NCBI GenBank assembly: GCA_964563355.1
Contig: CAZLVU010000006.1
Location: 18,346 to 82,345, forward strand
DNA: 64,000 nt
From: an uncultured Candidatus Poseidoniales archaeon
GTDB lineage: Archaea > Thermoplasmatota > Poseidoniia > Poseidoniales > Thalassarchaeaceae
Reading direction: 5' to 3'
Shown here: one piece after another, positions 28,048 to 51,284 of the stretch
Position numbering within the stretch: the first letter of the stretch is position 1
Layout: every line of letters begins with the position of its first letter
Made by a program: the position numbers and the translations under genes
Notes under the pieces: model-generated
Seen by the model: only the letters and a program-made list of their open reading frames with translations
Told to the model about the DNA's origin: nothing
Databases searched by the model: none

Positions 28048-31199
<3,152 letters not shown>

Positions 31200-33399: not shown

Positions 33400-36300
33400 G
33401 TGGATGAGATGGAATCGGAAAAGCAGGACGTTCAACCAATCCCTTTGCCCTCTTCTTTGGGATCCCCATTGGCAATTACAACCGCTCTAACTGCCCTATT
33501 CTTGCTAATGTGCCAGATCGATGGAAGGCAACTAGGTGACGGCTACCTATCCGACTCTTTGTTACTTCCTGCAGCTGCCTTATTCTCTGCCTGCATGGGC
33601 CGAGTATCAAAATTTGTGATTCCGCTAGAATCTTCCGGACTCAGGGTGGCCGTACTTTCGGCCATTCTTCTGCTCGTTTCACTTGCTGTGAACACTTTGG
33701 CACCATCGATTAATGACGGTATGCTCGTTTCCACACTCTTACTGGTTGGCATAGTTGTAGCAATCCTAATTGAATCTAATAGAAACGAGGAGTCCAACCT
33801 ATTCTTCTCATTGATTGTCGGCCTTCACCTCTCTGCCTCCTATGCAGCCGGATTGGAGATGATCGATGGCGCTGTTACCCCTCAGATGATTGATGCAGAG
33901 AGGCTTGCGATAGGAACCTCATTCTTCTCGTTCTGGCTGGCATCCATTTCCCTCGGTGCTCTAGTCACGATTTCTATCAGGGGGGCTCTGAAAGATTTGG
34001 GTTCTGGAAAATCGATGTCGTCAGTTCCTACGGTTTCCAAGAATCATGAGGTACTGATTTACTCATCACTAATTTTCGGCGTCTTCCTCATCCCTCTCGT
34101 TTGGATAGGGCAAATGGCTGACATCGAGCAATTCTCCGAGGGTAGCCATCTTGGGGTTGTCTGGGCAATTTTCACTGCGGCTGCAATTCTCATTCATGCT
34201 TTCTTCCGGGCGGAAGGTTGGCATGTCCTCGGGGCTTTGCTTGCTGTCAACTGGATAATCTTCTCGATCGGCAGGCTACATGAGATAGGGAATGAGTTCC
34301 CAGGAATTCTTGGGGAAGCAACCTTCATCGGTTCAGTCTCATGGTTCTTCATTTGGTTTTGGTTGAACTTCTTCGCGGTAATGGCCGCATCCCGAGGGAT
34401 CTTTGGTGATGTTGCTCCAAAGAGGGAGACCAGCCAGCTTAGAGTTTGGTGGGGGGATAACTCCTATCCATTGCTCGTCGGACTCGCCTTCGTAACTGCA
34501 CTAGTCGTCAGGACGGCATGGAACGTCATTCCAGCCATGAATGCCTCAGGTACCGGTCTGTGGGACATGACGGGAGGTTCCGATCCTTGGTACATGAAGA
34601 GGGTGGTGGACTACGTTTTGGCGGAACGGAGCCATCTCATTTTCGATCACGATCGAGCCTACCCAATCGGCGGCGTAAACCCAAGACCACCACTCTTCTC
34701 CTGGTCACTCGCTCTCGGAGGCTTGGTACTATCGTGGCTTCTTGAGGTTGCACCAGAGGAAGCAGTTTGGTGGTCAATGGCTGGATTACCTGCGATATAT
34801 GGGGCACTGATTGTACTCCCTATCGCGGGAATCGCAACGAGGATACACAGTAAGAACGCGGGAATTATTTCTGCATGGCTAATCGCGTTAATGCCCGGAC
34901 ACATCAGCCGGTCAACGTTCGCTATGTCGGACCACGACTCTTTCGCAATGCTATTTTTGGGGATTTCCTTCTACTACTGGATTAGGGCGTTAGAGGAGTT
35001 AGAAAATAAGAAGATGTTTGAGTCCACGAGCTCCAATCCACTCTATTTAATCGCTGGGATTAGGGAGACTTGGAGGAGAAATCCCACTGCAATGGCGAAT
35101 GCTACGATGTCCGGAATCGCATTCACCATAATGGCTCTGGGTTGGAAGGGATTCGTTTACGGCCCGGGCATCCTATTCCTAGCCTACTCAGTTCAGGTTG
35201 CTATCAACATCTTCAGGGGGAGGGACAGCATGGAGTTCACCTCCGCCGCACTGCAGATGATGTTGACCTGCATCTTATTGCCTGCTCCATTCTATGCGTG
35301 GCCGGGGCTAAACCTCCTTTTCGCTCCTAGTGGGATGCAGCCAATGTTCTACATCATCGGTTTCACGTTCGCAGTTGGTTGGGTTGCTAGCTCCTTCAGA
35401 GACAAACCTTGGCTTCTGGTAATTATTAGTGGATCAGCCCTATTTGGATCAATTCTCGCGATACTTTACATTCTCCAAGCAGCCGAGATTTACAACGGAT
35501 GGGACATACTTTTCACCGGTGGTTTCTACTTCTCGAAGAACAAGATCTTTGGAACGATTGGAGAGGCACAAGCCCCTAGCAGAGGCGTTCTTTTCGCTTC
35601 ATACGGACCCGTGGTAACTCTCATTGCGATTGGCTGCGGTTTCGTCCTACTATGGAGGGGTAGCCGGAGAAACCGATCGGGCTTGACACTGTTGGGTTTG
35701 TGGGCAATCATTGCAACCTACATGGCATGGACGGCTGGCAGATTCATCATCAACGCTACTCCCGCCATGGCGGTCGTTGGAGGAATTGGCATCTCTATGC
35801 TCTGGAGCAATGCGAATTTCCCCGGATTCCTGAAGGTTTGGCGAAACTCCGGAATTGGGACTCCCAGGACACGCCTCCGGTCAGTTTGGCCCGCTTCAAA
35901 ATCGCGACCGGGCATTCCAGCCCTCCTCTTGGTGCTGCTTTTAGTAACATCTCAACACGCTACATATGGAATCGACTCTGGAATACCCCGGGGCGAAGAA
36001 TCGTCATATGATGTAGATTTGGAAATTTACAACATCGCTCCAGACATACTCCGAGAGAGGTATTTGCCGATTTTCAACACCAAGTCGTACAATCCAGATT
36101 CTTCAGGCCTATGGTACATGGGTACTTTCGGTCCCAGCTTCAACGGCCAAGGATGGAATGATGCATACGATTGGTTATCTAATCAAGACTCAGACTTGCC
36201 TTTCAGCCAACGACCCGCCTTCGTTTCTTGGTGGGATTATGGATTCCAAGCCCTAGCTTCAGGCCAACACCCAACAGTTGCTGATAACTTCCAGTCTGGA

Positions 36301-39300
36301 ATACCTAACAGCGGTGGGATGCTTGTTTCAGCTGGCCAAGAAGACACCCTTTCAATGTTCATCGCCACTCTGGCCCAGGGTGACAGGAGCCTCAACAACT
36401 TGGAATTGAGTGAAGAATTCCGCTCGGTTCTGTCGGCCCACATGTCCACAGAACAGGTCGCAGAGTTTGAAAACATCATCAAGAACAACGACAGAGACTT
36501 CGTCCTGAATAGGTCAATGGCTGTTGTCGCCGTCTACAATGAAGTTGAGCTTCTACATGGGGAGGTACTGGACGACGACGGAATCCCCGTGGTCGGAAAG
36601 GTGTGGATGGTTCTGGATGATGGAGGACAAGTAGGCGAATCGACACAAAACCAGTCTGAGGCAATGGCTCTATTCAACCAGACCCGATCCTCGACTTCAG
36701 AGTTTGAAATCAACTCCCCAGCTCACTATGACCTTGGTGGATATAGGTATACGAACGACCTAATCGATGATTACTACGACATTTCCACCGCCCTGCACAG
36801 GAGTAACGCACGGTTCGGCCTTATGCGCGCCTTCCTGAACACTGCCTTCGACATGGAAACTCTAGTCAACATCTACGACGGTATCACATCAATAGAGTAC
36901 GAAGGGATTTCGGACTATGAGTCTCCATCGGGTGGCACCACCACAAGGAACCATGAGATTAGGTATTTCGCTGTCGACAACCGACTATTTCCCCTAGGTG
37001 GCTCTTACTATGACGATTACAGCTATCACAGGGGTCAGACAACCGGAATTTTCCATGCACCCACACATCTTTCTGGGCTTGACATTGACACGTACATCTC
37101 CACAATGTACCAGACTCAGAGGGGCGACGGACCAATAATCCCTAGGACCCAGGAGCAGTACGAACAGGAATACCTCAATGACGTAGTTAGGCAGCAATCC
37201 GGGGCTTCAGACGCATCTGAGGTCATCAGGATGATAGATATCGACTACCAACACCAGCCGGAGTTCTTCGAAACTATGGTCGCTAGGATCTACGTAGGCT
37301 ACGGGTCATCCACTCTTGGCTTACCGGGAGAGGCCGAGACCCCATCTGTATGGTTCCTCCCCCAACAAACAAAGCTCACTGGAGCTCCCGGCTCTTATCT
37401 AGAGAACGCCTTCGCACTCCCGGGAGCCATGATGAACCATTTCGTTATTTCTAATTGGTATGATGGCAGCGAATGCGAATTCATCGAGATGGAAGGCACT
37501 GGGACCGGAACCAGCTCAAACTCCACGCTTTCAAACGTCAGCCTCTCTTCATGGGATGGTGTCGCAATAGGCCAAATGATCACAGGCAGTGACGGAATTA
37601 TCCATTCGGATGCAATAATCTCCGGATTCAACGAATCTGCTCAGACAATAAATATGAGTGAAAACTCACTCTCCAGCGGAATCGTCTCCAATCTGACTGT
37701 AATTGGTGAGAAGATTAATTCACTGTGCGGATCTCTCTATGATTCCAATCGTGTTGTCAAGGTCCTGAAGTACTACAGTGGGGCAACTATTGAGGGAACG
37801 GTATCTCTCGAGGGAGTCGGTCCAGTACCAAACGCCCGTATCCTAATTGAGAGGGACGCATTTAGTGGCGATGAAGAACCAGACGCCAATGGAAGTGTCG
37901 TTGATCATGACCCTAGGACATATTGGATTCCCATCGGAAGCACTCAAGCCGACGAAAACGGGCATTACTCATTCACCGTCCCGTCTGGGAAGATTAGGGT
38001 TTCCGCCTTTACCGGGGATCCTGACTTGGAAGCTGCCCGTTCATCGATTATGTCAACTGATGTTGGTAATTCAATGTACGAGCTCTTCAGTGAACACCAA
38101 GAGGACCGAGTCATTAATCCAATTACCGGAATCCTAGGAAACGTCTACGGCTCAACTTGGCTGTCAGAAACGACAGTCAACATTTCAGCCCAAGACGGCC
38201 ATAGTAATGGTGGCGTTATTATCGAAGCCCCGATCAAGGTTCAGCCCTCCTCTGCCTCTGGGATCATAACCTGGTCAGGAGGCCTCGATTTCAATGGGGA
38301 TCCATTGTTAGATGCTAGTGTGATTCTTACCCCTGTATCGGAGGACGTTTCCATTGAGCCCTATCGTGCCGAAACATCCAATGGCACAGTATCTGGAACT
38401 GGGTTGGAGTTTACTGGAATCGGCGAAGTGACCTTTACCGGAAACGGCTCGCTGTTGTCCGATGGTATCGTCACAGTCACAGATTTCACCGGAACTCACA
38501 CCCAATCCATCTCCAACAACCACAGCATTACGGGCGAGGGTCAATTCTCTGGACGAGGCATTCTGGAAGGTTCACTGGAGGAACTCGAGCCTGCACCTTC
38601 TTGCGCCTCGGGAGAGATCCCGGAGGGTCACGAAGTCTGCGTCTTGGACGGTGGGAATTTCCTGGTTGATGGATCGGTCAACGCTTCAGGCAGATTCACA
38701 TCCGAGGGAAACAGCGTCTTCATCAGGACTCTCAGCCAGTCAACCTTCCTTGGGTCCGGCATCTTCGAGACGGACACATCGGCAAATATTGCAACTTATG
38801 GGACTCTGAACGGGACCGGTGCCTTCTCCGGCTCCGGGATATTTAGTGGCCCTATGGTTGAACCCGGCACATTCCATATCTCTGATGCACTTCCCGGCAA
38901 GTATGACATATCGTTGGACTTCGACAATGGGACATCTATTGAAATTGAAACCAAATTCTATGTTGGACTAGTGCCCTCGGCTACGCCCATTCAGATTTCT
39001 GTTTCCGGTGGCGGGATAAAGGGATCACTCTCGGACCATTCTGGCAACCCTCTGACATCCCCCATACATGTTTTCCCCGAGAACGCCTCTTATCTGGACG
39101 CACAAACTGAGTGCGAAAAGACGCTGTCATCACCTTGCTTTGTCACTCCCGATTCCGACGGCTCCTTCCAAATCGGCCCCATCGTTCCTGGAACTTACTT
39201 TGCAGAGTTAGATGCCGACGAAGACGGCTTCCCCGAGATTTCCAAGACCTATGTCTTCACTTCCGAAGAGGACATCGTCGCAACTTTCCCCTCGGAAATT

Positions 39301-42300
39301 CCACAGATGACCGATATCACATTCACTCTTCTGGACGGGACATCAACAGTACCCGACCTCGAAGTTTTCTTCACTCCCGAGAATGAGTCCATACCCGCAG
39401 TCAGAGCATTGTTCGACTCAGAGTCCGGAATTTACAGGGCCGAACTTTCACAAGGAGTGTGGACGCTCAACCACACCCTAGCTGATGACAAGCAGCTGTG
39501 GAAGCGCATTGACGTAGGGACGGAAGACATCACCGATTCATTTGAATTCCAAGTCAGCCAGATTGTTAACGGCACCCTGTACTATTCCCTCGATTCAAAG
39601 GAATTGGCACCGATGCCCCAACAGGCAGTCAGCAATCATCATGTAGTCTTCCAATGGCAGGGTTTCAAACTCTCAACCCCAACAGATTCTCATGGGAATT
39701 TCAGCGTAGTCCTCCCCGTTGACTCAATAATCCATGCTACCGCAGTGGTGTTGTCAGGGGTCGATGGATTCTATTCCAACGGCACTCGTTTCCAAGTTTC
39801 CCCGGGGATGGACGATGTTTCCATATTCTTGGTGGAATCTGCCAGGGTTAATGGCGTTGTGAGCCTCATCAGAGAAGGAAACACATACTCGGACGCATTT
39901 TCTGGATGGGAGCCAGTATTCGTATCTGCACTGAATACCGATGGCACCACCGATGCTTCGTGGAGGCAAGGCGCAAATTCTGAAGGGCTATTCGAGATGG
40001 TTTTGCCCCCAGGGAACTGGACTTTCACTCTCGATGCTGGAGACTTGTCCTCAAATTCAGTTTCAAGGGAAATCAACACCAGCGGCGGATTCGAGTTAGT
40101 CGAGCTTCTTCTATACCCTCAGGACAACAGTACCGTTCTCATCGACTTCTTCATAGATCATGAGGGCGATAACAATGTATCCAATGGGACTCTCGTAACT
40201 AGGCAATTCGAGATAAAGCCAGTATTCTCCAACGGTGCAGGAATTACCGTCGCGGCAGACGGCCCCGAGTGGAATTCAACCGGCAGGGCTGAGATTTCAC
40301 TCGAGCCTGGAATTTACAGGATAGTGGTTGAAAGAGCGAATGCTTCAGCAAACGATCCGTTTGATACCCTTTACGATGTAAACGAACTTTTCCACGTCGG
40401 AATGGATCCAACTACTGTGGAGAGATCACTGGGCTTCGAGCCAGAGTGGCTGCTTAACTTGACCTTTAGGAACGAGAGTGGCAGCCTTCTTACTGACCAC
40501 GAGATCGTGTTAAAAAATTCTGATAATGGGTGGATTCGAACCCTTTTCACCGATGAAAATGGAAGAATTGTGGAGTATTTGGGTGAATCTGATTGGTTGG
40601 TTATTGTTGACGAGTTTGAGACTAGTTCAGGAGTCTACGAGGGGCTGAGGAGACTCATCACGGTTTCACAAGAGACTGCAAACTTGAGAATGAACTTGCA
40701 GACTTCTGAGCTTGCCGAAGTTTCAGTCTTCCTGACGGAAGCGGTCCCCAGCGAAAACGTGGAATTAATGCAGCTCAGGTTCACTTCTCAGGAGGGTTTG
40801 GGAACAATTACCGCACAGGCCTCTGGGTTCCAAGAACCTGTGGAAGTTAGACTTTCACCGGGCAATTGGAATCTGGAGTTGAATCAGACTGATGAAAAGG
40901 GCGTCAGGCTACTAATCGAAAACACGTCTTTGATCGAGACCGGAGTGACTGTTGGGGTCGAGCATAGCGTGTACTTCGCTGTCCAAAGGCTGATCGATCT
41001 GGGGGGGACGGTTTTCTGGGACCTCAACGGCGATGGAGACCCGGGTTTCTCCGAGGGACTCGCTAACGCAACAGTTAGTTTGTCCTCGAAAAATCCCGAT
41101 ACACCACCTTCAGAGGCCCATTACAACCTAACAACTGACTCATCCGGGGAATGGAGCATTTTCCTTCCAGCACTCAGCAACTGGAACGTTTCAGTCCAAA
41201 GGGATGGCTTCGGAACCGTTAACTCATCCATTTCTCTTGGTCTATCTGCCCAAGCTGAGAATACCGAGATAACCGCAGGAGTGGTCGAGGTCTCCGGAAC
41301 CGTTTCCTACATATCCGAAGAATGGATTTTCGATGACGACTGGAGTATAGTATTGATCCCCTCTCACGGGATCGCTAGGGACAGGGTAACCCCTGACATT
41401 GTAGGCAATGAATCCAGTGGGTGGACTGGCGAGTGGACTGCTTCTGTTGAACCCGGTCAGTGGATTGTATACGTTACCGTTTACTCGCCAAATGAGGGAT
41501 ACTACCTTGTGGCCGTAGATATTCTTGATGCTGACGTCGAGGGAGGTTTCGTCGACTCGGTCCTCTCAACTGGCGGAGTGTTGTCCCTAGACACCGAGTG
41601 GCTGGATTATGAGGGTGGCAAACATTCCCTTTCCGAGATAGATGACTACGACCTCAAGATATCCATCGAGGGAGGGACTTCATGGTCAGAGGAACTGGAT
41701 AGCGGTGGGGAATTGCAGTTGCTGTTGCCCGCTGGAAGAGTTGATGCCTCAAGCGAATTCCTGGTAGAACAGCGCGGAAGGAACATGTCCTACAACGGAG
41801 GACAGGGTGTAAACATCAAGACCGGTCAGGATAGTCCCCTGAGTACGTTAAGCCTCGTTCGCGTCTCAAACCAAGACCTAGTAATCGAATCCATCGGCGG
41901 AAGCTCAGTTGAAGTTGAAATTGAACAGGGGTGTTCGGGGAACGACTGCAATTACACTGCTGTCGAGTTTTCCCTGAGGGTGGAGTATAACGGCCACAAT
42001 CCGTTCGATAGCTACGTTGCAACTGGCACGGTACCTGGCATGGACGGTCATCTATGGACAGTCGAGTTCGAAAACAAAAATGGATCGTGGGACGGAACCC
42101 TGGAGACTTCCTTCGAAATGGGTCTCGACAACAATTTGTCGATTGAAGAATTTAGAGTTCGAGTGACCCCGGCAAACAGGAGCCAAGCCCACCATTTTGG
42201 CCTGGGGCACATGATCCTGCTAAAATTCGCGACCGCAGAGGGATACTCGCTCCAGCACGAGATGACCGTCATTATCCCCAAGTTCTCCGGGTTTGAGATT

Positions 42301-43104
42301 TCAGACGAATTCCAGGATTCCCAATACTTCACCCCTGAACAGCGCACTGTCGAGATCGGGATCCCATACTCCAATCTCGGTAACGGGGACGATATTCTCA
42401 CATTCAGTTTCCAAGCCCCAGAGGGCTGGGAATTGAACGGCCCAGAAATGCAACCAGTATCGCCATTCTCAACTGGGATGACCACGATCGTACTATACTA
42501 TGGCGGCGATCAATCCCTCCAACTATCAAACTACACCGTTTTCATGACCGTTTCAGATTCTGAAAACAATTCTTATCCGTACGAATTCTCGCTGTTACGG
42601 GATTCTCCCGATCTTACAATAGTCGGTGACACGATCCAATTACAGGGTGGCGGGAACCCCGTAGTCAGCCAAAAGTCAACCTACGTGGTTGAGGTTGAGA
42701 ATCTGGCACACGTTGATGCTGAAGGAGTAACTCTCGTCGCAACACTTTGCTCCGACATAAAATGCGAAAACCCCGCGGGCGTTACGTCTTCAGTGGTTAG
42801 CGACGTTCCCGCTCAAGGGTCCTCGCAGTACTATGTCTTGATGGATTTCAGCAATTTTTCTACACCGGATAAGTACTTCATTCTGTTTGAGATCCAATTG
42901 CCGGAACCTTCCGAAGACGAACTAGAGGCGTGTGGAACTGAGCAAGCTAGGGGATCTTCCTTCTGTGTAATGGAGGCACAGCTCTGGTCAGAGGCCCAAG
43001 AGGAAGTGATTGGGTGGATGAACTATCTGTTCATATTGATGTTGGGGATTGCCATTTACTTCTTGACCAGCAGACGTACAGGTAGGAAGCCCGCCCCATT
43101 CTGA
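33400..43104 (+). CDS. aglB: Giant oligosaccharyltransferase AglB (STT3 family) fusion, 3234 aa
   Basis: WWDYG motif at 36229-36243 (about residue 944). First-loop GGSDPWYMKR and MSDHDSF acidic motifs are present. The RYFAVDNRLFP region is typical of AglB C-terminal domains. About 345 aa of extra TM helices precede the STT3 core. About 1900 aa of CarboxypepD_reg/Ig-like repeats follow it. The protein ends in a TM helix, WMNYLFILMLGIAIYFL, followed by TSRRTGRK. Confidence 0.85.
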   Translation: MDEMESEKQDVQPIPLPSSLGSPLAITTALTALFLLMCQIDGRQLGDGYLSDSLLLPAAALFSACMGRVSKFVIPLESSGLRVAVLSAILLLVSLAVNTLAPSINDGMLVSTLLLVGIVVAILIESNRNEESNLFFSLIVGLHLSASYAAGLEMIDGAVTPQMIDAERLAIGTSFFSFWLASISLGALVTISIRGALKDLGSGKSMSSVPTVSKNHEVLIYSSLIFGVFLIPLVWIGQMADIEQFSEGSHLGVVWAIFTAAAILIHAFFRAEGWHVLGALLAVNWIIFSIGRLHEIGNEFPGILGEATFIGSVSWFFIWFWLNFFAVMAASRGIFGDVAPKRETSQLRVWWGDNSYPLLVGLAFVTALVVRTAWNVIPAMNASGTGLWDMTGGSDPWYMKRVVDYVLAERSHLIFDHDRAYPIGGVNPRPPLFSWSLALGGLVLSWLLEVAPEEAVWWSMAGLPAIYGALIVLPIAGIATRIHSKNAGIISAWLIALMPGHISRSTFAMSDHDSFAMLFLGISFYYWIRALEELENKKMFESTSSNPLYLIAGIRETWRRNPTAMANATMSGIAFTIMALGWKGFVYGPGILFLAYSVQVAINIFRGRDSMEFTSAALQMMLTCILLPAPFYAWPGLNLLFAPSGMQPMFYIIGFTFAVGWVASSFRDKPWLLVIISGSALFGSILAILYILQAAEIYNGWDILFTGGFYFSKNKIFGTIGEAQAPSRGVLFASYGPVVTLIAIGCGFVLLWRGSRRNRSGLTLLGLWAIIATYMAWTAGRFIINATPAMAVVGGIGISMLWSNANFPGFLKVWRNSGIGTPRTRLRSVWPASKSRPGIPALLLVLLLVTSQHATYGIDSGIPRGEESSYDVDLEIYNIAPDILRERYLPIFNTKSYNPDSSGLWYMGTFGPSFNGQGWNDAYDWLSNQDSDLPFSQRPAFVSWWDYGFQALASGQHPTVADNFQSGIPNSGGMLVSAGQEDTLSMFIATLAQGDRSLNNLELSEEFRSVLSAHMSTEQVAEFENIIKNNDRDFVLNRSMAVVAVYNEVELLHGEVLDDDGIPVVGKVWMVLDDGGQVGESTQNQSEAMALFNQTRSSTSEFEINSPAHYDLGGYRYTNDLIDDYYDISTALHRSNARFGLMRAFLNTAFDMETLVNIYDGITSIEYEGISDYESPSGGTTTRNHEIRYFAVDNRLFPLGGSYYDDYSYHRGQTTGIFHAPTHLSGLDIDTYISTMYQTQRGDGPIIPRTQEQYEQEYLNDVVRQQSGASDASEVIRMIDIDYQHQPEFFETMVARIYVGYGSSTLGLPGEAETPSVWFLPQQTKLTGAPGSYLENAFALPGAMMNHFVISNWYDGSECEFIEMEGTGTGTSSNSTLSNVSLSSWDGVAIGQMITGSDGIIHSDAIISGFNESAQTINMSENSLSSGIVSNLTVIGEKINSLCGSLYDSNRVVKVLKYYSGATIEGTVSLEGVGPVPNARILIERDAFSGDEEPDANGSVVDHDPRTYWIPIGSTQADENGHYSFTVPSGKIRVSAFTGDPDLEAARSSIMSTDVGNSMYELFSEHQEDRVINPITGILGNVYGSTWLSETTVNISAQDGHSNGGVIIEAPIKVQPSSASGIITWSGGLDFNGDPLLDASVILTPVSEDVSIEPYRAETSNGTVSGTGLEFTGIGEVTFTGNGSLLSDGIVTVTDFTGTHTQSISNNHSITGEGQFSGRGILEGSLEELEPAPSCASGEIPEGHEVCVLDGGNFLVDGSVNASGRFTSEGNSVFIRTLSQSTFLGSGIFETDTSANIATYGTLNGTGAFSGSGIFSGPMVEPGTFHISDALPGKYDISLDFDNGTSIEIETKFYVGLVPSATPIQISVSGGGIKGSLSDHSGNPLTSPIHVFPENASYLDAQTECEKTLSSPCFVTPDSDGSFQIGPIVPGTYFAELDADEDGFPEISKTYVFTSEEDIVATFPSEIPQMTDITFTLLDGTSTVPDLEVFFTPENESIPAVRALFDSESGIYRAELSQGVWTLNHTLADDKQLWKRIDVGTEDITDSFEFQVSQIVNGTLYYSLDSKELAPMPQQAVSNHHVVFQWQGFKLSTPTDSHGNFSVVLPVDSIIHATAVVLSGVDGFYSNGTRFQVSPGMDDVSIFLVESARVNGVVSLIREGNTYSDAFSGWEPVFVSALNTDGTTDASWRQGANSEGLFEMVLPPGNWTFTLDAGDLSSNSVSREINTSGGFELVELLLYPQDNSTVLIDFFIDHEGDNNVSNGTLVTRQFEIKPVFSNGAGITVAADGPEWNSTGRAEISLEPGIYRIVVERANASANDPFDTLYDVNELFHVGMDPTTVERSLGFEPEWLLNLTFRNESGSLLTDHEIVLKNSDNGWIRTLFTDENGRIVEYLGESDWLVIVDEFETSSGVYEGLRRLITVSQETANLRMNLQTSELAEVSVFLTEAVPSENVELMQLRFTSQEGLGTITAQASGFQEPVEVRLSPGNWNLELNQTDEKGVRLLIENTSLIETGVTVGVEHSVYFAVQRLIDLGGTVFWDLNGDGDPGFSEGLANATVSLSSKNPDTPPSEAHYNLTTDSSGEWSIFLPALSNWNVSVQRDGFGTVNSSISLGLSAQAENTEITAGVVEVSGTVSYISEEWIFDDDWSIVLIPSHGIARDRVTPDIVGNESSGWTGEWTASVEPGQWIVYVTVYSPNEGYYLVAVDILDADVEGGFVDSVLSTGGVLSLDTEWLDYEGGKHSLSEIDDYDLKISIEGGTSWSEELDSGGELQLLLPAGRVDASSEFLVEQRGRNMSYNGGQGVNIKTGQDSPLSTLSLVRVSNQDLVIESIGGSSVEVEIEQGCSGNDCNYTAVEFSLRVEYNGHNPFDSYVATGTVPGMDGHLWTVEFENKNGSWDGTLETSFEMGLDNNLSIEEFRVRVTPANRSQAHHFGLGHMILLKFATAEGYSLQHEMTVIIPKFSGFEISDEFQDSQYFTPEQRTVEIGIPYSNLGNGDDILTFSFQAPEGWELNGPEMQPVSPFSTGMTTIVLYYGGDQSLQLSNYTVFMTVSDSENNSYPYEFSLLRDSPDLTIVGDTIQLQGGGNPVVSQKSTYVVEVENLAHVDAEGVTLVATLCSDIKCENPAGVTSSVVSDVPAQGSSQYYVLMDFSNFSTPDKYFILFEIQLPEPSEDELEACGTEQARGSSFCVMEAQLWSEAQEEVIGWMNYLFILMLGIAIYFLTSRRTGRKPAPF

Positions 43105-43132: not shown

Positions 43133-44371
43133 ATGAGGGGAATTCAACACCTCGAATTAATGCCCGAACCGGAAGATCCCAGCCTACTCACAGCAGTTGA
43201 CTCAGATGCCCCAGGCTATCCGGGAGAGGTATACGGGGTCTCTGATCGGGAAGCAAGGGAGATGAGGTGGCCAGCAGGCCCGATTATGAAGTTACTTTGG
43301 CCTTGGGGCGCCATCGTGTTCTCTGTTTCAACGGTTGTTATTATTTTGGCATGGAGCACCATAGCCCCCATGTTGGGATATGTTCTCCCTGACTCTGAAT
43401 GGGCATACGAGGACTCTGGAATCAGGGGCCTCCAGGACCTCGGCCTGACTGGGGAAGGTGTCAGGGTTTGCATGGTTGATACCGGTATCGATATCTCACA
43501 CCCAGACCTTTCGACAGTCATGCTATCCGGTTTCAGGGATCTATATTATTCTCAGAATGAAGATGTCAGGGACATTGGTCTTGACAGCCACGGAACCATG
43601 ATGGCGGGTTTGCTAGCAGCCAACGGAACCTATCTGGGAGCAGCACCTGGAATTTCTCTGTCAGTTGCAATAGCACTGGGGCCAGCTGGAAAATCAACTG
43701 ATGAGAGAATGATTTCCCAAGCCATCCGGTGGTGCCGAATCTCTCAGGAAGCAGACATCATTTCGCTTAGCTTGGGAAGTGAGCCAGGCATGGGAATGGG
43801 TATTGAGTCTGAGACTATTGCGGCTGTGATCGAGGCCTTGGATGCGGGAATTTTTGTCATCGCTGCAGCTGGTAACAGTGACATTTCTTTCAACGATTCC
43901 GACGTTTCAACTCCTGCAAGCATAGATCGGGTGATTGCTGTCGGGGCCCATAGCTGGGACAGTAGCGCATGGGAGGACAGCGCAATCGGCTCAAACATAG
44001 ATCCCATTAACGGGGAAAAAAGGCAGTTTCCCAATCAGAAACCCGAGATTTCAGCACCCGGAGTACTCCTTTGGTCATGCACCAATAGCGACAAAAATCC
44101 TCCATATGCATACTCTACGGGGACAAGTGACTCTACAGTACTCGTCACTGGAGCTTTAGCACTAATCCTGGAGGCTCATGGCACCTCAATTTCAGGAACA
44201 GACGAAAAGATTGACTCCGACGAGATGAATCTTGTCAAGGTCGCCTTGGCCAAATCGGCAACCAACTCACCAGACCAGGTGGGGGCTCACGATTCGAAAC
44301 TGGGATACGGGCTTCTGAATGCGGAGGCTTGGTCATCGCAGGTTGCCTTGGAATTTGCTTCCGATGATTAG
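43133..44371 (+). CDS. Membrane-anchored subtilisin-like serine protease (peptidase S8)
   Basis: Asp box VCMVDTGIDISHPDL, His box DSHGTMMAGLLAA, Asn region AAAGNSD, Ser box STGTSDSTVLVTGALAL. N-terminal TM segment AIVFSVSTVVIILAWSTIAPML. Confidence 0.85.
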   Translation: MRGIQHLELMPEPEDPSLLTAVDSDAPGYPGEVYGVSDREAREMRWPAGPIMKLLWPWGAIVFSVSTVVIILAWSTIAPMLGYVLPDSEWAYEDSGIRGLQDLGLTGEGVRVCMVDTGIDISHPDLSTVMLSGFRDLYYSQNEDVRDIGLDSHGTMMAGLLAANGTYLGAAPGISLSVAIALGPAGKSTDERMISQAIRWCRISQEADIISLSLGSEPGMGMGIESETIAAVIEALDAGIFVIAAAGNSDISFNDSDVSTPASIDRVIAVGAHSWDSSAWEDSAIGSNIDPINGEKRQFPNQKPEISAPGVLLWSCTNSDKNPPYAYSTGTSDSTVLVTGALALILEAHGTSISGTDEKIDSDEMNLVKVALAKSATNSPDQVGAHDSKLGYGLLNAEAWSSQVALEFASDD

Positions 44372-44439: not shown

Positions 44440-47400
44440 ATGAGGAGCGCAAGCGAGCTCAGGTCAATCGCTCTCGTGGCCCTGTTCTTGAGTAGCATCA
44501 TCCTGTCATTGACACTCCCAGCAAGGACTGTGGAAGCCTCCAATGAGACGACAGAGGGTACCATTACGGGGACAGAGGTGTGGATGGGAGTCCATACTCT
44601 GACTGGAGACGTCAGTATAGCCCCCGGCGCCAAGCTAATCATCCAACCGGGAGCTACGGTTAACTTCCCCAATGGCACCCATCTCGACGTCCGTGGGAGC
44701 CTTTGCGCTGGCGTCGCCTCCTGTGGGAGTAGCGGCGATGCTGATGCCTCGATGCGAATTTCACTCAGGTGGGAGGAACCTGAAAACTCTAGTGCAACTG
44801 GGGAATGCTACGGACTGTCACATTCAAATCAGGAAATTTGGATAGATGACCCCTCCTGCAGTGAGGGGATCCTAATGAGGAGCACTATCGACCTCTCCCA
44901 AACTGAGATGAGTCATGTGACATTTGACGGGGCATGGGGAGTCCCTCATTACATTTCTATAGTCAGCGAGTTCCGTTATGCAGCCCTAGTACTGGATGGT
45001 GCCAGCCCAACACTGACTGAGCTTGAGTTCACAGACATCAATACAAGCAGCGTCCTGACAACAAACCTAGCTCAACCCACCTTTAACGGGGGAAGCTTCG
45101 TTGTCGGGAATGACGCGAGCCGAAGCATCGTAGGCAGCGCCCTCCAGATTTACGCGTCCGGCTCATCTGTCAGCCCGTTCACCCTGACCGACTTTACTTT
45201 GGATGCCGGGACTAACAATGGGTGTGGAAATCGAGATGGCGGGAGGGCTGCGATTTGGTCGGAGCAATCTTTCATTGTGATAGACAATGCCGAAATCGCC
45301 GCTGGCGATTTCGGGATCGGCCTGAAGACTTCTGCGGGGAGTGTGACCAACTCAGTTGTGAACGTCAATTGCAATGGGATTGACATTAACGGTAAGAAGA
45401 CGGTAGGCTCGACCTACTTTGAGTTCGATATTGAAAATAACCAAATCACAACCGATCAGGGAAGTGGGGTTACCGTATACTACGGCGCTTACGCAACTTT
45501 ATCCAATAACAACATCCAGGGGGCTGCGGGTGGTTCTGGAGTCGGTGTTTATTCTAGCTTCGCAGCCATTCATAACAACCACATCGGCCCAATAGATGGG
45601 TACAACGGCCTTTGGCTTACCGGCTCTTTCGACGTCATCGCTGAGAACAATACTATCATCGGCACCGCTAGGGAGCCGGTGGTGGCTGGCTGGTATTCCC
45701 GTTCAGTCTCATCTGCGTCAAGAGTGCTCCTAGCAAACAATTCAATCACATACGGCGGCGCTGCCACTTGCAGCAGTACCCTATACTGGGGTGGCGATTT
45801 CACCTGTCCTGTGGTTCACGCCTTCCTTACCGGGGTAACGATGTATGACAATGTGGTGACCGCAGGGGGCACCGCTGACGGAATTAGGTCAGTGGGCTCA
45901 CTACTTGACATACAGAGAAACTATTTCGAAGTCCAAGAAACCGGCGCGGTTCTCAGGAACTACGACAGCGGATACTCTTCCTCCCAGCAACATGGGACCC
46001 TAGCCTTCTTCTCCGAGAACGAATGGGTGGGTAACAGAGTTACCTACAACGTCACCAAGAGTTCGGTAACTGCACAGTCTGAGTACATCCCCTCCCCACC
46101 ACCCGGAGAATTCCCTGTGAAGCTCACATGGCCAGATCAGGAGGCTTGGCCAGAGAACAATTTCCAAGGAGCAATCGTACCCACCCCAGTCAGTGACTGC
46201 GCCAGTTGCGATAATATGACACCGCGAAATTTCCCCCTTTCTGTTAGCATGGACAACAACTCAACTGTTTTCACATTCGCCAACCTGTCTAATCTAGATC
46301 TCTCAAAGGTGAAGATCGCCACTCAACCCACCCACTATGCAGTTCAAGTTAGCAGGGCCGAACTGGTACGCTTCCAGACTCTGATTAAGGGGGAGAGGGT
46401 AAGCGATGCACAGGTCTTCATTGAGGATGCTCTTGGGAACGACCTTTACAATATCAAGACAAAATCTGACGGTTTCACACCTTGGATTGCGTTACCGTCA
46501 AACTTCCATCTGGATTTCAGAGGGCTTGGTGGGGGCGACAACCCTGATGGTTTCGCTGATGATGAGTATGAGGATTCATGTTCTGACGGAATTGACAATG
46601 ACGGAGACTTGGCCACGGACACCTCCGATAACGATTGCAACTACACCGCAGGAACTAGGGAGATGTCCCTTTACAGGTACACGGCATACAAGTTCGGCTT
46701 CGGATACTATAGAGGCGAATTCACCCTCGCCGAATCTTCCCTACAAGAAGCCGCCAGTCTGGAAAACCTAGCTCCCTCGGTCAGCATAACTGAGGAAAAT
46801 GGCCACTCATTCCGCAGGATCCTCAATATCACCGGCAGTGCCCACGATGGTCAGCTTGCCAATAGCTATGCAACGGATGAGACGGCACAATGGGACCAAC
46901 GTGGCTACGTCCATTCTATACAAATCAAAGATCCATTCACAAGCACTTGGGAAGATGCAGGCTTAGCAGTTGATGATAGTGGGGCTTCGGCAGGGCACGT
47001 GACTAGGTTCAACCACCCATTCAGCTCTTGGTATTATGAGTTTGACATGAGCAGTCTTGCTGGAGAGGGTGATTACACCTTTGAATTCCGGGCGTTCGAT
47101 GGTATCGACTACAGCCCAATTGTAGCGCGGACATTCAAGCTCAACACCCAGGCTCCGACGGTTTTCGTTTCCTCACCCAGTTCTTTCAGTTCACATGATG
47201 ATGGCTCAGTCGAATTTGTCGGGGCCGCCCAAGATCCTTACGGGTGCCCCTCGGACTGCAACAAGGACATTGGACTGATCTATTTGCAGATCGAGGGGCC
47301 GAACTTCCAAGTCACAACCCCCGTTCAGTCTGGCGCTGGTGGCAACTGGGAATGGACATGGGACTTCAGCGGCCAACCTAGGGAGCTTGCCACCTATACC

Positions 47401-48705
47401 TTCACGATTTGGGCCTCGGACTCCGACTTTTGTATCGGCTTCGTTGACGAATGTATTCCAGTAGTGCTAACCCTGAGTATTGACAACACGAACAGCAAAC
47501 CAACCATCAGTGTCAATGAACCGTATCAGGGGTCGCGGATTTCCGTCTCTGACAACACCATAGTCAGTGGCGTAGCTAGGGATTTCGATGGTGAGCTTAC
47601 CAGGGTCGATCTCGAGGTTAAGGACATCGAGAATGACTATGTAACAATTCATACTGCAAAAACTAGCGAATTCTCTGAAAACGGGGAGTGGCAGATTGAA
47701 TGGGACACCACCCAGCTCCGCCATGACTCAGAATACTTGCTCCGACTGAGATCGTATGACGGTCTCGACTTCAGTAGTTGGATAGAGGTCTCAATAACCG
47801 CTGACAACCCACCCGACGCTGGAAACAACCAACCTGAGTTCGACTCGATGGGCTGGCAAAACGAGATTACCCTGTACTGCGACACGGATTCTAGCTCCGC
47901 AAATAGGTGCACTCTGGCAGAAATAGATCTGATGGACTTCTTTAGTGACGATGATGGCGACATAGTGTACATCTCAGTATACAACGACTCATCCCTAGAC
48001 CAGGATGACAATTATCCAATAGTGGTGAACGTCGGTGGCGATGGGATCGCTCATTACAACCCAGCTGACATGTTCTTCTATGAGGAAGACACCGAGGCTT
48101 GGACCCTGAGCAATGTAATTTTCATAGCAACCGACTCTTTCGGCTCTAAGGCCAATTCCCAACCAGTTACATTTGTTGTCGTCCCTCTACAGTTTTCTAT
48201 CGTCCCACCAGAGTTGGATTGGATTGAGGTGGGGGGGATAGCGATTTATTCTGGAATCGGACTTCCGGGCAAACAGGTCACCGTAATGATTGGGGGCATT
48301 CCTGTCAACAACACAATAGTGAGCGCCAACGGCTCTTGGGAGCTTGGAATACCCGCTTCCAGGATTAAAGACACTTCAACACCGAATTTCAGTTACAGCG
48401 GTCAGACCATTCAGGGCGAGGAAATTAGCCTTGGGGCACCAGTCGCAGAAGGACGAGACTGGGGCAGTATCGCCATTTTGGCAGTTTTCTGCATCGCATT
48501 ACTAGCTGCGGCAGCGTACTTCCTGCTTGAGATTGAAGATGATTACGAGGAAGAATATCAAAAGTCTCCTGAGGATTATAGGGACTCATTGGATGACATC
48601 GAGCAGGATGCCGAGGCGGATTTGGTTAGCTACGATGACCACCCCGGATGGCTCTGGGATTCATCCACCGAGGAATGGGTACCCGATCCCGATTTTGAGG
48701 GTTAA
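44440..48705 (+). CDS. Surface protein, 1421 aa: signal peptide, right-handed parallel beta-helix (PbH1) repeats, Cys-bracketed DND metal-binding-like motif, Ig-like domains, C-terminal TM and acidic tail
   Basis: Signal segment SIALVALFLSSIILSLTLPARTVEA. PbH1-like repeats NNQITTDQGSGVTVYYGAYATLSNNNIQGAAGGSGVGVYSSFAAIHNNHI. Motif CSDGIDNDGDLATDTSDNDC. TM segment WGSIAILAVFCIALLAAAAYFLL is followed by EIEDDYEEEYQ. Confidence 0.8.
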   Translation: MRSASELRSIALVALFLSSIILSLTLPARTVEASNETTEGTITGTEVWMGVHTLTGDVSIAPGAKLIIQPGATVNFPNGTHLDVRGSLCAGVASCGSSGDADASMRISLRWEEPENSSATGECYGLSHSNQEIWIDDPSCSEGILMRSTIDLSQTEMSHVTFDGAWGVPHYISIVSEFRYAALVLDGASPTLTELEFTDINTSSVLTTNLAQPTFNGGSFVVGNDASRSIVGSALQIYASGSSVSPFTLTDFTLDAGTNNGCGNRDGGRAAIWSEQSFIVIDNAEIAAGDFGIGLKTSAGSVTNSVVNVNCNGIDINGKKTVGSTYFEFDIENNQITTDQGSGVTVYYGAYATLSNNNIQGAAGGSGVGVYSSFAAIHNNHIGPIDGYNGLWLTGSFDVIAENNTIIGTAREPVVAGWYSRSVSSASRVLLANNSITYGGAATCSSTLYWGGDFTCPVVHAFLTGVTMYDNVVTAGGTADGIRSVGSLLDIQRNYFEVQETGAVLRNYDSGYSSSQQHGTLAFFSENEWVGNRVTYNVTKSSVTAQSEYIPSPPPGEFPVKLTWPDQEAWPENNFQGAIVPTPVSDCASCDNMTPRNFPLSVSMDNNSTVFTFANLSNLDLSKVKIATQPTHYAVQVSRAELVRFQTLIKGERVSDAQVFIEDALGNDLYNIKTKSDGFTPWIALPSNFHLDFRGLGGGDNPDGFADDEYEDSCSDGIDNDGDLATDTSDNDCNYTAGTREMSLYRYTAYKFGFGYYRGEFTLAESSLQEAASLENLAPSVSITEENGHSFRRILNITGSAHDGQLANSYATDETAQWDQRGYVHSIQIKDPFTSTWEDAGLAVDDSGASAGHVTRFNHPFSSWYYEFDMSSLAGEGDYTFEFRAFDGIDYSPIVARTFKLNTQAPTVFVSSPSSFSSHDDGSVEFVGAAQDPYGCPSDCNKDIGLIYLQIEGPNFQVTTPVQSGAGGNWEWTWDFSGQPRELATYTFTIWASDSDFCIGFVDECIPVVLTLSIDNTNSKPTISVNEPYQGSRISVSDNTIVSGVARDFDGELTRVDLEVKDIENDYVTIHTAKTSEFSENGEWQIEWDTTQLRHDSEYLLRLRSYDGLDFSSWIEVSITADNPPDAGNNQPEFDSMGWQNEITLYCDTDSSSANRCTLAEIDLMDFFSDDDGDIVYISVYNDSSLDQDDNYPIVVNVGGDGIAHYNPADMFFYEEDTEAWTLSNVIFIATDSFGSKANSQPVTFVVVPLQFSIVPPELDWIEVGGIAIYSGIGLPGKQVTVMIGGIPVNNTIVSANGSWELGIPASRIKDTSTPNFSYSGQTIQGEEISLGAPVAEGRDWGSIAILAVFCIALLAAAAYFLLEIEDDYEEEYQKSPEDYRDSLDDIEQDAEADLVSYDDHPGWLWDSSTEEWVPDPDFEG

Positions 48706-48746: not shown

Positions 48747-51284
48747 GTGCTCGGTAGCGTGGCCAACATCGCAACGACCCGCCCGGGGGTCCAAGAGAGG
48801 ATTTTCCTTCACCTCAGGGACTATATGGACCATAGCGATAAGGTAGAAGTCCCCTTTGCGCTCTCTCAAATGGGAATTGCAAACGCAGTCTCCATTGCAA
48901 GATCAAATGTACCTAGGGCAATTTCGGGAATGAAAGATTCCGGACATCTAATTGAGAGACAAGCTCACGTCACCGGGGTGTCTAGAAAGCGCAAGGCATA
49001 CTTCCTTACCGATGAAGGAGCTACAGTCGCAGATGAAATTTGGGAAAAGGTCTCCGAGAATCCAGTCAGGATCATCCACCCAGACGGCCGTTCGGAGTCA
49101 ACTAACATTTCCGATGCACTCGAAACTACTGAACTCCCCCTCCGTCATGTAGACATGCTCCGCTATATGGACGACTCAGGAACTATCGATTTAACCGGGC
49201 TTACACCGGAGATGATTGAGCGAGATCTTTCTAAGCACATCGAAAAGCAACTGGTCTCATACCTCAACGATCTACCGAGGACAAGAAGATTCTACGGCCG
49301 GACAAAGGAAATTGACGACATTGCAGATTTTCTCGGGGCCAGATCGATTTCAATCTTGGTCCCTGGAATCGCCGGAATCGGGAAAACCGCACTTTCTACA
49401 AAGATTCTTGATAGATTCACGCACAGAAGGAACCTCCTTTACCACAGATGTCAGGATTGGGAGGGGTCGCGTGCTTTCCTTGAGACCTGTTCGGAGTGGC
49501 TTTCCGCTTTGGGAAACAACGATCTTTCGGACTACCTGGCTTCTTCCCCAGTTCCTAAGACCAACATCGCTGTCAATCTAATCGAGAACGGGCTTTCCGG
49601 TTCTCCTTCTTTACTTGTAATAGACGACCTGCACAAGGTGGGAGACGAGACCCTTTATGCCATTCTGAGGGAGCTAACTATCAGGGTTCCTAGATTGAAG
49701 GAAGTAGGCTTAGTAATGTTTTCCCGCTCATTCAGGATGGTGGTCCCGGAGAGGGACCAGGCTGGCAATATCGTCACTTTGGTGATGCCACTCCAAGGAC
49801 TCGATCAAGAGTCTAGCAAGCAGATACTAACTGCAATCCCCCAATTGAATACCGAACAATTCTCTCACATTTACACTCTTTCCAGAGGCCATCCCCTGAT
49901 ATTGGAACTAATCAACAGGGGTAATGTCGGAGAGACTTTCCACTCAACTCTGGAGGCGTTCGTCGAACAGGAAATTTTCAGTCGGCTTTCTGGAGCTGAA
50001 AAGCGACTCCTCGGTGCGATTGCGGTATTTAGGGAACCAATCCCGATTCAGGCAATCAAGCAAGTAGAGGGAGGGGTGGACCTTCTGGATGAGTTGGTCG
50101 AAAAAGGCCTAGCAAGGCAGTCAGACGCAGAAAACTATGACGTTCACGACCTGGTAAGGGAGTTTCTGATGCGTTCTATGGGTGAGGAACTCAGAACAGA
50201 ACTGCATCTCGCGGCGGTAAATTGGTACCGAGAAAAGAAGAATAACGCTGCCGACAGGATAGAATTCCTCCATCATTTACGCCATACCGGTGACGACGAG
50301 GGTCTTGCTGAGGTTTTGCTTTCCGAGGGACACAGACTAGTTAGCGCTGGACATACTGAGTTACTGTCGATTTTGAACTCCCTAGACATGAATGACTTCA
50401 ACTCCACTAGCTGGGGGCTAATTCGGGAACTGAGGGGGGATATCCTCTCAATACAAGGAATGTGGGACGAAGCTGAGGTAGAGTATGATGCAGCCACCAA
50501 GCATGTTGGTACGGCGAAAGCAAGCAAAGAGCTTGCAAGACTTCTTTCCGCACGCGCCGACATTGCAGTGAAGAGGGGCGCAATGGACGACGCCTTAGAG
50601 CTTCATAGAAAAGCTCTGAAAATACAAGTTGAGATTCGTGACGCTGTCGGTGCTGCAAGGTCATACATCAACATGGGCCATATTTTTCGACGTAGGAGGG
50701 ACACTAGGCACGCCCTAGAGGTCTACGGCAATGTGGAGGAGTTATTGAAATCGGAGGATGATCCAGAACTAGACGATGCCAGGATCAGACTGGCTTCCGC
50801 GTTCATCGAGATGGAGGAGCTGGAAAGGGCCCGGGAACATGCTCTCACGGCATACGAGAACACGAAGGATGGGCAGGATTTCATTCACGCAAGGTCACGA
50901 GCGGTCCTAGGAAGGTTCTATGCTAGATTATCCGACAACGAACTCGCTCTTCACCACTACTCGGGAGCCTTGGATACGCTCTCCGACCTCAATGACCCTA
51001 GGAGTGCGGTGGAGGTCGAGATGCTTTTGGGCCAGGTTCTCGTGGACGCTGGAAGAAGGGACGAAGCAGGCGAGCACTACTTGAACGGACTTGCTGTCGC
51101 CGAGGCAAACGACTTCAGGATGCTCCAAGGGGAAATATTGGCCCGGCTTGGGGAGGTTGAAGCTGATAGGTCTCAGCGTATGAACTACTTGCAGCGTTCC
51201 CTATCGACTTTCAGAGAGATAGGAGCAGTGGGCAGGATGAGAGAGGTCCAAAATGCAGTTCACAGGGCAGTGATGGGAAAATAA
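48747..51284 (+). CDS. wHTH - AAA+/STAND-type NTPase - TPR regulator, 845 aa
   Basis: N-terminal winged-helix segment LSQMGIANAVSIARSNVPRAISGMKDSGHLIERQ. Walker A VPGIAGIGKTAL and Walker B LLVIDDLHK. The C-terminal TPR-like repeats include ARSYINMGHIFRRRRDTRHALEVY. The start is GTG. Confidence 0.8.
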   Translation: MLGSVANIATTRPGVQERIFLHLRDYMDHSDKVEVPFALSQMGIANAVSIARSNVPRAISGMKDSGHLIERQAHVTGVSRKRKAYFLTDEGATVADEIWEKVSENPVRIIHPDGRSESTNISDALETTELPLRHVDMLRYMDDSGTIDLTGLTPEMIERDLSKHIEKQLVSYLNDLPRTRRFYGRTKEIDDIADFLGARSISILVPGIAGIGKTALSTKILDRFTHRRNLLYHRCQDWEGSRAFLETCSEWLSALGNNDLSDYLASSPVPKTNIAVNLIENGLSGSPSLLVIDDLHKVGDETLYAILRELTIRVPRLKEVGLVMFSRSFRMVVPERDQAGNIVTLVMPLQGLDQESSKQILTAIPQLNTEQFSHIYTLSRGHPLILELINRGNVGETFHSTLEAFVEQEIFSRLSGAEKRLLGAIAVFREPIPIQAIKQVEGGVDLLDELVEKGLARQSDAENYDVHDLVREFLMRSMGEELRTELHLAAVNWYREKKNNAADRIEFLHHLRHTGDDEGLAEVLLSEGHRLVSAGHTELLSILNSLDMNDFNSTSWGLIRELRGDILSIQGMWDEAEVEYDAATKHVGTAKASKELARLLSARADIAVKRGAMDDALELHRKALKIQVEIRDAVGAARSYINMGHIFRRRRDTRHALEVYGNVEELLKSEDDPELDDARIRLASAFIEMEELERAREHALTAYENTKDGQDFIHARSRAVLGRFYARLSDNELALHHYSGALDTLSDLNDPRSAVEVEMLLGQVLVDAGRRDEAGEHYLNGLAVAEANDFRMLQGEILARLGEVEADRSQRMNYLQRSLSTFREIGAVGRMREVQNAVHRAVMGK

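Follow-up and report, generated by a model that had tools for sequence, protein, structure and literature searches.

AglB/STT3 is the signature enzyme of N-glycosylation. Characterised archaeal AglBs comprise ~600-1,050 amino acids (aa) and, to our knowledge, every AglB/STT3 characterised from archaea or bacteria is a stand-alone protein within this size range, accessory subunits being confined to eukaryotes. In the eukaryotic oligosaccharyltransferase (OST; PDB 6C26, 6S7O), STT3 is ringed by β-sandwich ectodomains that are held by C-terminal transmembrane (TM) helices, and extra TM helices are packed around it. Here we analyse a giant aglB/STT3 gene on a 64,000-nucleotide stretch of DNA from an uncultured Candidatus Poseidoniales archaeon (contig CAZLVU010000006.1, positions 18,346 to 82,345; hereafter the window), the archaeal origin of which is confirmed by a CDP-archaeol synthase gene upstream of aglB. 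A single open reading frame (ORF) joins an N-terminal membrane domain, an STT3 catalytic core, a long extracellular tail and a C-terminal membrane anchor (Table 1). This ORF very probably encodes a functional giant AglB orthologue.

The probability of encountering 3,234 stop-free codons by chance is negligible (ln P ~ -155 at a stop frequency of 3/64). Translation probably starts at the ATG at position 33409 (M4) because this is the start column of most orthologues. Each STT3 hallmark quoted in the original prediction (SDPWY, SDHD, WWDYG and RYFAVDN) was found where claimed and could be assigned to residues. The Pfam STT3 profile (PF02516) matched residues 394-646 with 40.4 bits (cut-off 24.5), and orthologues reach 47-61 bits against the same family. 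The best NCBIfam model was TIGR04154 (archaeo_STT3), which covered residues 359-978 and remained below its threshold (148.1 bits; cut-off 450). A weak AglB_core-like Pfam match was seen at residues 941-977, and a weak DUF4198 signal is also present in the ORF. The top match of a phmmer search against PDB sequences was AglB-L of Archaeoglobus fulgidus (AfAglB-L; 3WAJ/5GMY), which pairs GGNDPWY with GGSDPWY, NDHH with SDHD and SWWDYG with SWWDYG.

Conservation of these motifs is strict. All seven residues of GGSDPWY are invariant among 23 aligned sequences; D, H and D of SDHD, T, I and E of TIGE, and WWDYG in its entirety are invariant in the orthologue alignment. The motif of external loop (EL) 5 is kept across the wider giant AglB clade in the version [YF]xT[IV]AEAQ. 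Within the strand IRYFAVDNRL (residues 1186-1195), which was considered for the DK or MI motif of the Ser/Thr-binding pocket, R, Y, F, A, D and L are invariant, and no canonical DxxK was seen. Foldseek comparison with the PDB returned AglB, yeast or human STT3 or PglB as the top 16 matches, with AfAglB-L in first place (best E 1.7e-6); the template modelling scores (TM-scores) of the core are low, 0.2-0.38, because model confidence is low in this part. As the motifs of EL1, EL2 and EL5, WWDYG and the STT3 profile match are present, the catalytic equipment of an oligosaccharyltransferase is, as judged from the sequence, complete. An N-A-T sequon at residues 785-787 (35752-35760), which is kept in 100% of the orthologues, lies inside the predicted penultimate STT3 TM helix (RFIINATPAM); it is probably structural or catalytic and not a glycosylation site.

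A search of 5.8 billion proteins yielded at least 120 orthologue clusters, nearly all 3,027-3,340 aa long and two of them partial, from ENA, JGI, NCBI and TARA assemblies. End-to-end collinearity with the window protein holds for at least 118 independent full-length orthologues (3,027-3,340 aa), at pairwise full-length identities as low as 44%. They are filed under the source names 'Candidatus Poseidoniales archaeon', 'uncultured marine group II/III euryarchaeote' and 'Thermoplasmatota archaeon', and database labels of such proteins read 'hypothetical', 'STT3 domain-containing' or 'glycosyltransferase family 39'. In bins of 100 residues, identity to the query reaches 0.62-0.83 for the STT3 core, as compared with 0.33-0.66 for the tail and 0.27-0.48 for the N-terminal extension; indels are few except in one Cys-bounded loop. 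No stop codon or frameshift interrupts the orthologues, and the first 345 residues do not belong to a separate gene, the linker between the extension and STT3 being among the best-conserved segments.

The wider family was delineated by an exhaustive HMMER search with residues 4-1203 against 1.84 billion cluster representatives. About a dozen clusters (3,146-3,228 aa, 40-67% identity) cover the N-terminal extension. Dozens of further clusters (2,000-2,775 aa, 28-38% identity) match residues ~340-1030 only and begin with the STT3 domain. A third tier consists of shorter proteins, many without a C-terminal anchor, which may be contig-truncated fragments. Among the nearest 150 representatives of clusters formed at 50% identity, 94 are at least 2,000 aa long, and 92 of these 94 end in a TM helix followed by a basic tail. 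Because a profile of the tail from Marine Group II (MGII) matches the tails of the shorter giants in a roughly collinear manner (P0207, E 4e-33; P0169, E 1.5e-26; P0224), tail and anchor go back to the ancestor of a large clade.

A scan of GTDB with one genome per species gave 415 relatives, of which the best 80 loci were taken. These 80 belong to many orders of the Thermoplasmatota and include Thermoplasmatales (cultured Oxyplasma meridianum M1, Cuniculiplasma sp. and Ferroplasma), DHVE2 and Methanomassiliicoccales as well as Ca. Lutacidiplasma, Natronoplasma and Saliniplasma. Their ORFs of 2,026-2,323 aa have the same kind of C-terminus (the Cuniculiplasma genome, which is not that of C. divulgatum, encodes a 2,111-aa AglB), and all over the clade the catalytic domain is followed by a conserved first β-sandwich. 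Since homologous giants occur across the Thermoplasmatota, sequence comparison identifies the window gene as the form that a giant AglB of the whole phylum takes in Poseidoniales; the 10-TM bundle, a longer tail and an ...APF end are its lineage-specific additions. The unusual length stressed in the original prediction is thus real in comparison with characterised AglBs, but it is no oddity of the window: it is lineage-wide in Poseidoniales, and shorter giants are found across the phylum. Six giants of 2,300-2,700 aa without the extension carry a PGF-CTERM-like motif before the last helix (e.g. IPGFEVILLL and MPGFEALGL). These may be archaeosortase A substrates, in which case the far end of the enzyme would be lipid-anchored.

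The tail that follows the catalytic domain is acidic (D+E 14.3%, K+R 4.0%) and, as originally proposed, rich in sequons. Residues 1301-3200 contain 43 N-x-S/T sequons as compared with 18.2 ± 3.7 in composition-preserving shuffles (2.4x, z ~6.6). Orthologue tails contain 38.9 ± 5.8; some 25 sequon positions are common to at least 50% of the orthologues and several to at least 90%. Conserved sequons include those at N1594, N1707, N1761, N1804, N2262, N2358 and N2495. This is what the sequence of a heavily N-glycosylated ectodomain should look like. The tail also has four conserved Cys pairs, including 1735/1747, 1905/1913 and 3117/3122.

Profile searches revealed the domain composition of the tail. 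Like STT3, the Pfam family CarboxypepD_reg (PF13620) was matched above its cut-off (residues 2552-2616; 51.2 bits, cut-off 32.3; E 1.7e-13), and the CarboxypepD_reg/Ig-like stretches quoted beforehand could be located at residues 1466-1536 and 2536-2590. An iterated domain profile converged on five units, with no spurious hit before residue 1250, and hhalign profile windows tie residues 1928-2155 to residues 2394-2636. The β-sandwich signals scattered among orthologue tails comprise CarboxypepD_reg, Big_1, CARDB, DUF4198 and SdrD_B; no match to PDB sequences was obtained for the tail at E<=1. Recent tandem repeats were considered and rejected, self-BLASTP detecting no internal repeat at E<=0.01. 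The description 'repeat-rich' therefore holds at the level of profile and fold, where five units of ~100 aa recur, but not at the level of sequence; the tail appears to be a series of diverged β-sandwich domains, at least five of them CarboxypepD_reg-like.

The boundary between core and tail is marked by the disulfide-bounded loop Cys1359-Cys1443. It measures 14-16 aa in 84 of 119 sequences, while the window protein and 34 relatives (~30%) carry an S/T/N-rich, sequon-bearing insert of 76-98 aa. The insert explains the sole indel-rich zone of the alignment, and the loop may be an exposed variable site.

At its far end the tail is predicted to return to the membrane. The C-terminal helix WMNYLFILMLGIAIYFL at residues 3206-3222 is followed by TSRRTGRK, which bears out the second membrane anchor of the original prediction and brings the predicted total to ~24 TM helices (10 + ~13 + 1), the tail lying outside the cell with a membrane attachment on either side. 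The presence of N-terminal domain, tail and second anchor in one AglB therefore means that the enzyme is covalently tethered to a large, probably glycosylated and doubly membrane-fixed ectodomain, as had been proposed. The cytoplasmic peptide (43066-43101) is almost invariant in the family and follows the pattern ...LT(R/K)-R(P/G)G-RRx(S/G)APF-COOH, which suggests a specific cytoplasmic interaction. No PGF motif was found before the helix; the C-terminus reads ...EEVIGWMNYLFILMLGIAIYFLTSRRTGRKPAPF. A role of the ...APF end as a general sorting signal was considered and rejected, no second ORF of the window having such an end. From its distribution, the end is taken to be specific to the family and distinct from PGF-CTERM. 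More distant relatives that bear the N-terminal extension end in (P/R)F-COOH, and giants without it mostly in plain RRRK-type tails.

The extra polytopic domain in front of STT3 was also recovered, with ten predicted TM helices and not about eight as originally counted. Modelled alone by AlphaFold2 (AF2) with orthologue alignments, the extension gave ten TM helices at a mean predicted local distance difference test score (pLDDT) of 80.3 and a predicted TM-score (pTM) of 0.79; within a 1,200-residue model its pLDDT is 80-94. Averaged over the orthologues, predicted 'in' loops contain 9.8 K+R and predicted 'out' loops 0.9. By the positive-inside rule this bias places the N-terminus inside the cell, so that TM1 of STT3 would start from the cytoplasm as in canonical STT3.

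We found no relative of this bundle among known folds or PDB sequences. A Pfam search of the extension returned nothing even at E<=10, and Foldseek of its model returned no match better than E 1.2 in the PDB or 0.96 in BFVD, the best-ranked matches having TM-scores of at most 0.26. A duplicated STT3/GT-C membrane half was rejected as its origin (hhalign against the STT3 TM region: probability 0.4%, E 0.16). So was a CPBP/Rce1-type protease or other known membrane enzyme, hinted at by an EE...H...HEIGN-like pattern, for which neither Pfam nor Foldseek gave a match. A local profile hidden Markov model of the extension matched nothing outside the ~3,150-3,300-aa class in the 80 Thermoplasmatota loci and their flanks. 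A single-sequence search for stand-alone homologues returned only two orthologue fragments and says little about their occurrence. In ORF numbering (AF2 model numbering + 3), the conserved residues of the extension are R168, P232, W255, E272, W274, W285, E295-I296-G297, W315 and F320-W321, and the linker to STT3 TM1 is invariant at G333, G336, D337, P340, R348 and W350-W351. Judged by the helix boundaries, several of the conserved polar and aromatic residues would lie where helices 6-10 reach the outer face of the membrane, the side that also holds the STT3 active site.

Table 1. Coordinates of the giant aglB gene, its predicted domains and motifs, and the two genes that follow it
Feature	Position in window	Strand	Residues	Remarks
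Giant aglB/STT3 ORF	33400..43104	+		3,234 codons, stop codon included; GTG start; uninterrupted
N-terminal extension	33400..34434	+	1-345	10-TM helical bundle, N-terminus predicted cytoplasmic (AF2, K+R count)
STT3 transmembrane catalytic core	34435..35979	+	~346-860	~13 TM helices (Pfam STT3, 3WAJ/5GMY alignment, Foldseek)
EL1 motif GGSDPWY	34573-34593	+	392-398	
EL2 motif SDHD	34927-34938	+	510-513	
EL5 TIXE-type motif TIGE	35554-35565	+	719-722	
Extracellular catalytic (CC/IS-like) domain	35980..37299	+	~861-1300	holds WWDYG and the RYFAVDN strand
WWDYG	36229-36243	+	944-948	
RYFAVDN strand	36961-36981	+	1188-1194	
Extracellular tail	37300..42999	+	~1301-3200	acidic, sequon-rich, diverged β-sandwich domains
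Loop at core/tail boundary	37474..37728	+	Cys1359-Cys1443	disulfide-bounded; S/T/N-rich insert
Five CarboxypepD_reg-like units	39304..41319	+	1969-2065, 2068-2159, 2152-2255, 2349-2448, 2535-2640	~100 aa each
C-terminal TM helix and cytoplasmic tail	43015..43101	+	3206-3222 (helix), 3223-3234 (peptide)	ends in APF-COOH
S8 subtilase	43133..44371	+	TM ~52-78	type-II membrane-anchored; Pfam S8; 28 nt past aglB stop
Right-handed β-helix surface protein	44440..48705	+	1,421 aa; TM ~1340-1362	signal peptide, C-terminal TM helix, very acidic cytoplasmic tail; also in L001-L003

Taken together, we favour a single-chain oligosaccharyltransferase with built-in accessory modules as the explanation of this architecture and consider it rather probable. 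Like any AglB, the core would work at the outer face of the cytoplasmic membrane and move glycans from their lipid carrier to N-x-S/T sites of proteins. The tail, held in the membrane by both ends, would not be released; heavily N-glycosylated, it would form an arch or cage of defined shape above the active site or next to it. In concert with the C-terminal helix, and in MGII with the N-terminal bundle too, it would serve the enzyme in cis in a manner analogous, not homologous, to the non-catalytic subunits of eukaryotic OST; stabilisation of the enzyme, handling of substrate or lipid carrier and a contribution to the glycocalyx are possible tasks. The near-fixed length, collinear order, few indels and lack of recent repeats argue that the tail is an integral, constrained part of the enzyme and not a coat or an adhesin. 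Action in cis is likewise suggested by the clade-wide first β-sandwich, the conserved cytoplasmic C-terminal peptide and the conserved linker between extension and STT3. The accessory role of the tail as such is put forward tentatively, by analogy. Two results weigh against the single-chain reading: Pfam searches of the window protein and its orthologues revealed no homology to Ost1, Wbp1, Swp1 or ribophorins, and the STT3 core is poorly modelled by AF2 (residues 4-1203), with a pLDDT of 30-70 in many segments. The analogy to OST subunits is thus functional speculation.

It is at best rather unlikely that any specific function proposed for the N-terminal bundle is correct. One such proposal, which we regard as unlikely, is a self-contained N-glycosylation machine in which the bundle handles the lipid-linked donor or the dolichol-phosphate product by flipping, delivery or recycling, and tail and C-terminal helix are convergent equivalents of OST subunits. 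The bundle has a conserved polar and aromatic cluster (D165, R168, E295, N298, W235, W255 and W315), which would lie on the outer side of the membrane, as does the STT3 active site. If this were true, OST accessory functions would have arisen independently by fusion in Thermoplasmatota.

Cleavage of a polyprotein is a serious rival, improbable as we judge it to be. The tail would be cut off after membrane insertion, perhaps by the downstream S8 subtilase, to give a type-I envelope glycoprotein and an AglB of near-normal size. In favour of cleavage, the tail possesses a TM anchor of its own and the sequon enrichment of a surface glycoprotein, the variable exposed loop at residues 1359-1443 lies just at the core/tail boundary, and an extracellular type-II S8 peptidase is encoded directly after aglB in all four N-extension-class loci examined, down to 44% identity. 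AglBs of 2,026-2,323 aa, however, have tail and anchor without an S8 gene within 9 kb, which speaks against cleavage as a general principle, and no conserved cleavage motif was identified. Retention of the fusion throughout the phylum, with the conserved first β-sandwich behind the catalytic domain, rather suggests a function in cis.

A combination of OST and S-layer-like coat, as raised in the original prediction, would make the tail a lattice- or canopy-forming component of the envelope. Haloarchaeal and thaumarchaeal S-layer proteins are acidic, glycosylatable and built of Ig-like domains, and the ectodomain described here is of this type. The MGII envelope is moreover uncharacterised; two large comparative-genomic studies of the group mention neither S-layers nor glycosylation (PMC6461757, PMC6336850). 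Several observations nevertheless weaken the idea and leave it little likelihood. Thermoplasmatales, which for the most part have neither walls nor S-layers, encode homologous giants; C. divulgatum possesses AglB and no S-layer (PMC5155288), and its connection to the 2,111-aa version of the Cuniculiplasma genome is made at genus level. An enzyme with 24 TM helices would be an unlikely vehicle for the copy numbers of a coat, and no S-layer family appeared among the Pfam or PDB-sequence matches.

The chances are slim that the tail is an adhesin or particle-binding stalk that binds polymers or particles and is fused to AglB, the OST being incidental. Adhesion has been stressed for MGII (PMC6461757), giant putative adhesion proteins abound in MGII genomes, and the window itself contains ORFs of 2,985 and 1,929 aa. 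Unlike adhesins, the tail is of near-invariant length with collinear domains and neither expansion nor contraction of repeats; both of its ends are membrane-anchored, and Pfam scans of the window protein and its orthologues detected no lectin, carbohydrate-binding module or adhesin family. It is also present in acidophilic and methanogenic relatives of other lifestyles. Finally, an assembly chimera or frameshift read-through that joined a normal aglB to a surface-protein gene, for which only the unusual length could be adduced, has virtually no probability and is refuted by the orthologues: more than 118 independent assemblies from several sources contain the same 3,027-3,340-aa ORF, collinear across every junction, flanking synteny is kept, and a protein of 3,231 aa that is 99% identical is encoded on a 105-kb contig.

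The gene order around the giant aglB is CarS, PurD, giant STT3, S8 peptidase, a β-helix protein of ~1,415-1,461 aa and a STAND/TPR protein. It is the same in three orthologue loci at 48%, 45% and 44% identity (L001-L003), the two longer of which (L001 and L002) continue with a protein of metallo-β-lactamase (MBL) fold and a ~1,900-aa protein. Synteny with S8 and β-helix genes was looked for outside the N-extension class and rejected, being absent from the other Thermoplasmatota loci, where no S8 gene lies within 9 kb. The S8 subtilase starts with a conserved cytoplasmic peptide of ~45 residues (LELMPEPEDPxxLTAxDxDAPGYPG..YGVSD.EAR), followed by a TM helix and a protease domain outside. In eight loci of Methanomassiliicoccales/Thermoplasmata a purD homologue is found ~2 kb downstream of the giant aglB on the minus strand, whereas in the window purD is immediately upstream; this proximity may be remnant synteny.

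Positions 48747-52131 of the window encode the STAND/AAA_16-TPR protein, which has an N-terminal helix-turn-helix, and the MBL-fold protein. Both are syntenic in L001 and L002, where the MBL-fold counterparts match Anti-Pycsar Apyc1 in Pfam (weakly in L002). The 2,985-aa ORF (11405-20362, plus strand) shows signals of a transglutaminase-like core, CarboxypepD_reg, TSP3 and DUF4129. The 1,929-aa ORF (52188-57977, plus strand) shows a TSP3 signal and has the ~1,900-aa protein as its syntenic counterpart in the orthologous loci. Both are likely surface proteins and plausible OST substrates. A 593-aa ORF on the minus strand (29418-31199) combines a signal peptide and a weak CARDB match with a C-terminal TM helix and an acidic tail; L001 and L002 have a counterpart of 549-589 aa at the same place upstream of carS, and the ORF would encode another envelope protein.

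In the searchable literature we found no paper that joins STT3/AglB with Marine Group II or Poseidoniales, which is no proof that the lengths went unnoted. The papers on Thermoplasmatales in that literature name AglB without comment on its size, and AglB length is not a topic of a recent review on archaeal N-glycosylation. An 'oligosaccharyltransferase' gene has been reported as enriched in metatranscriptomes with an active MGIIb genus (PMC9723583). The enzyme family itself is known, while neither the giant architecture with its two membrane anchors nor the fold-orphan module at the N-terminus seems to have been described. One of the most abundant groups of archaea in the surface ocean, and in shorter form the whole phylum, would thus have this enzyme joined to a large, glycosylated ectodomain with a second membrane anchor. 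The functions of OST accessory parts could be studied in this natural system, which also offers a candidate for a major surface component of the uncultured Poseidoniales and, in the N-terminal bundle, a new fold of membrane proteins that awaits characterisation. As the shorter form exists in cultured relatives (Oxyplasma, Cuniculiplasma), the question is open to experiment.

Compared with AfAglB-L (PDB 3WAJ/3WAK/5GMY/7E9S), the window protein has the GT-C STT3 core in common, and the EL1 Asp, EL2, the TIXE-type EL5 motif and WWDYG all align, at a structural-alignment identity of ~15%. It is, however, ~3.7x longer, with the 10-TM bundle in front and ~1,900 more extracellular residues plus a C-terminal TM anchor behind. 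WWDYG and RYFAVDN are ~240 residues apart, as against a spacing of ~50 residues in AfAglB-L. The archaeosortase A system-associated OST family TIGR04154 is the best NCBIfam model, yet the window protein stays below its cut-off and is without a PGF-CTERM signal. Eukaryotic OST consists of separate chains (STT3 with Ost1/ribophorin I, Wbp1/OST48 and Swp1/ribophorin II), whereas here everything would be carried by one chain, and the resemblance is one of analogy only. NOMO-type chains have a string of PF13620-type β-sandwiches followed by a C-terminal TM anchor, as in the tail described here; this is a lead, and one orthologue gave a faint NOMO1-like Pfam match below threshold (E 0.09). Also close are the Thermoplasmatota AglBs of ~2,026-2,323 aa (up to 2,775 aa). 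They are without the N-terminal 10-TM bundle, and their tails are ~700-800 residues shorter and lack the ...APF end, in place of which some have a PGF-CTERM-like motif; S8 or β-helix genes are not adjacent. They nonetheless share with the window protein a homologous STT3 core (28-38% identity), a homologous and roughly collinear tail, and a C-terminal TM helix with a basic tail.

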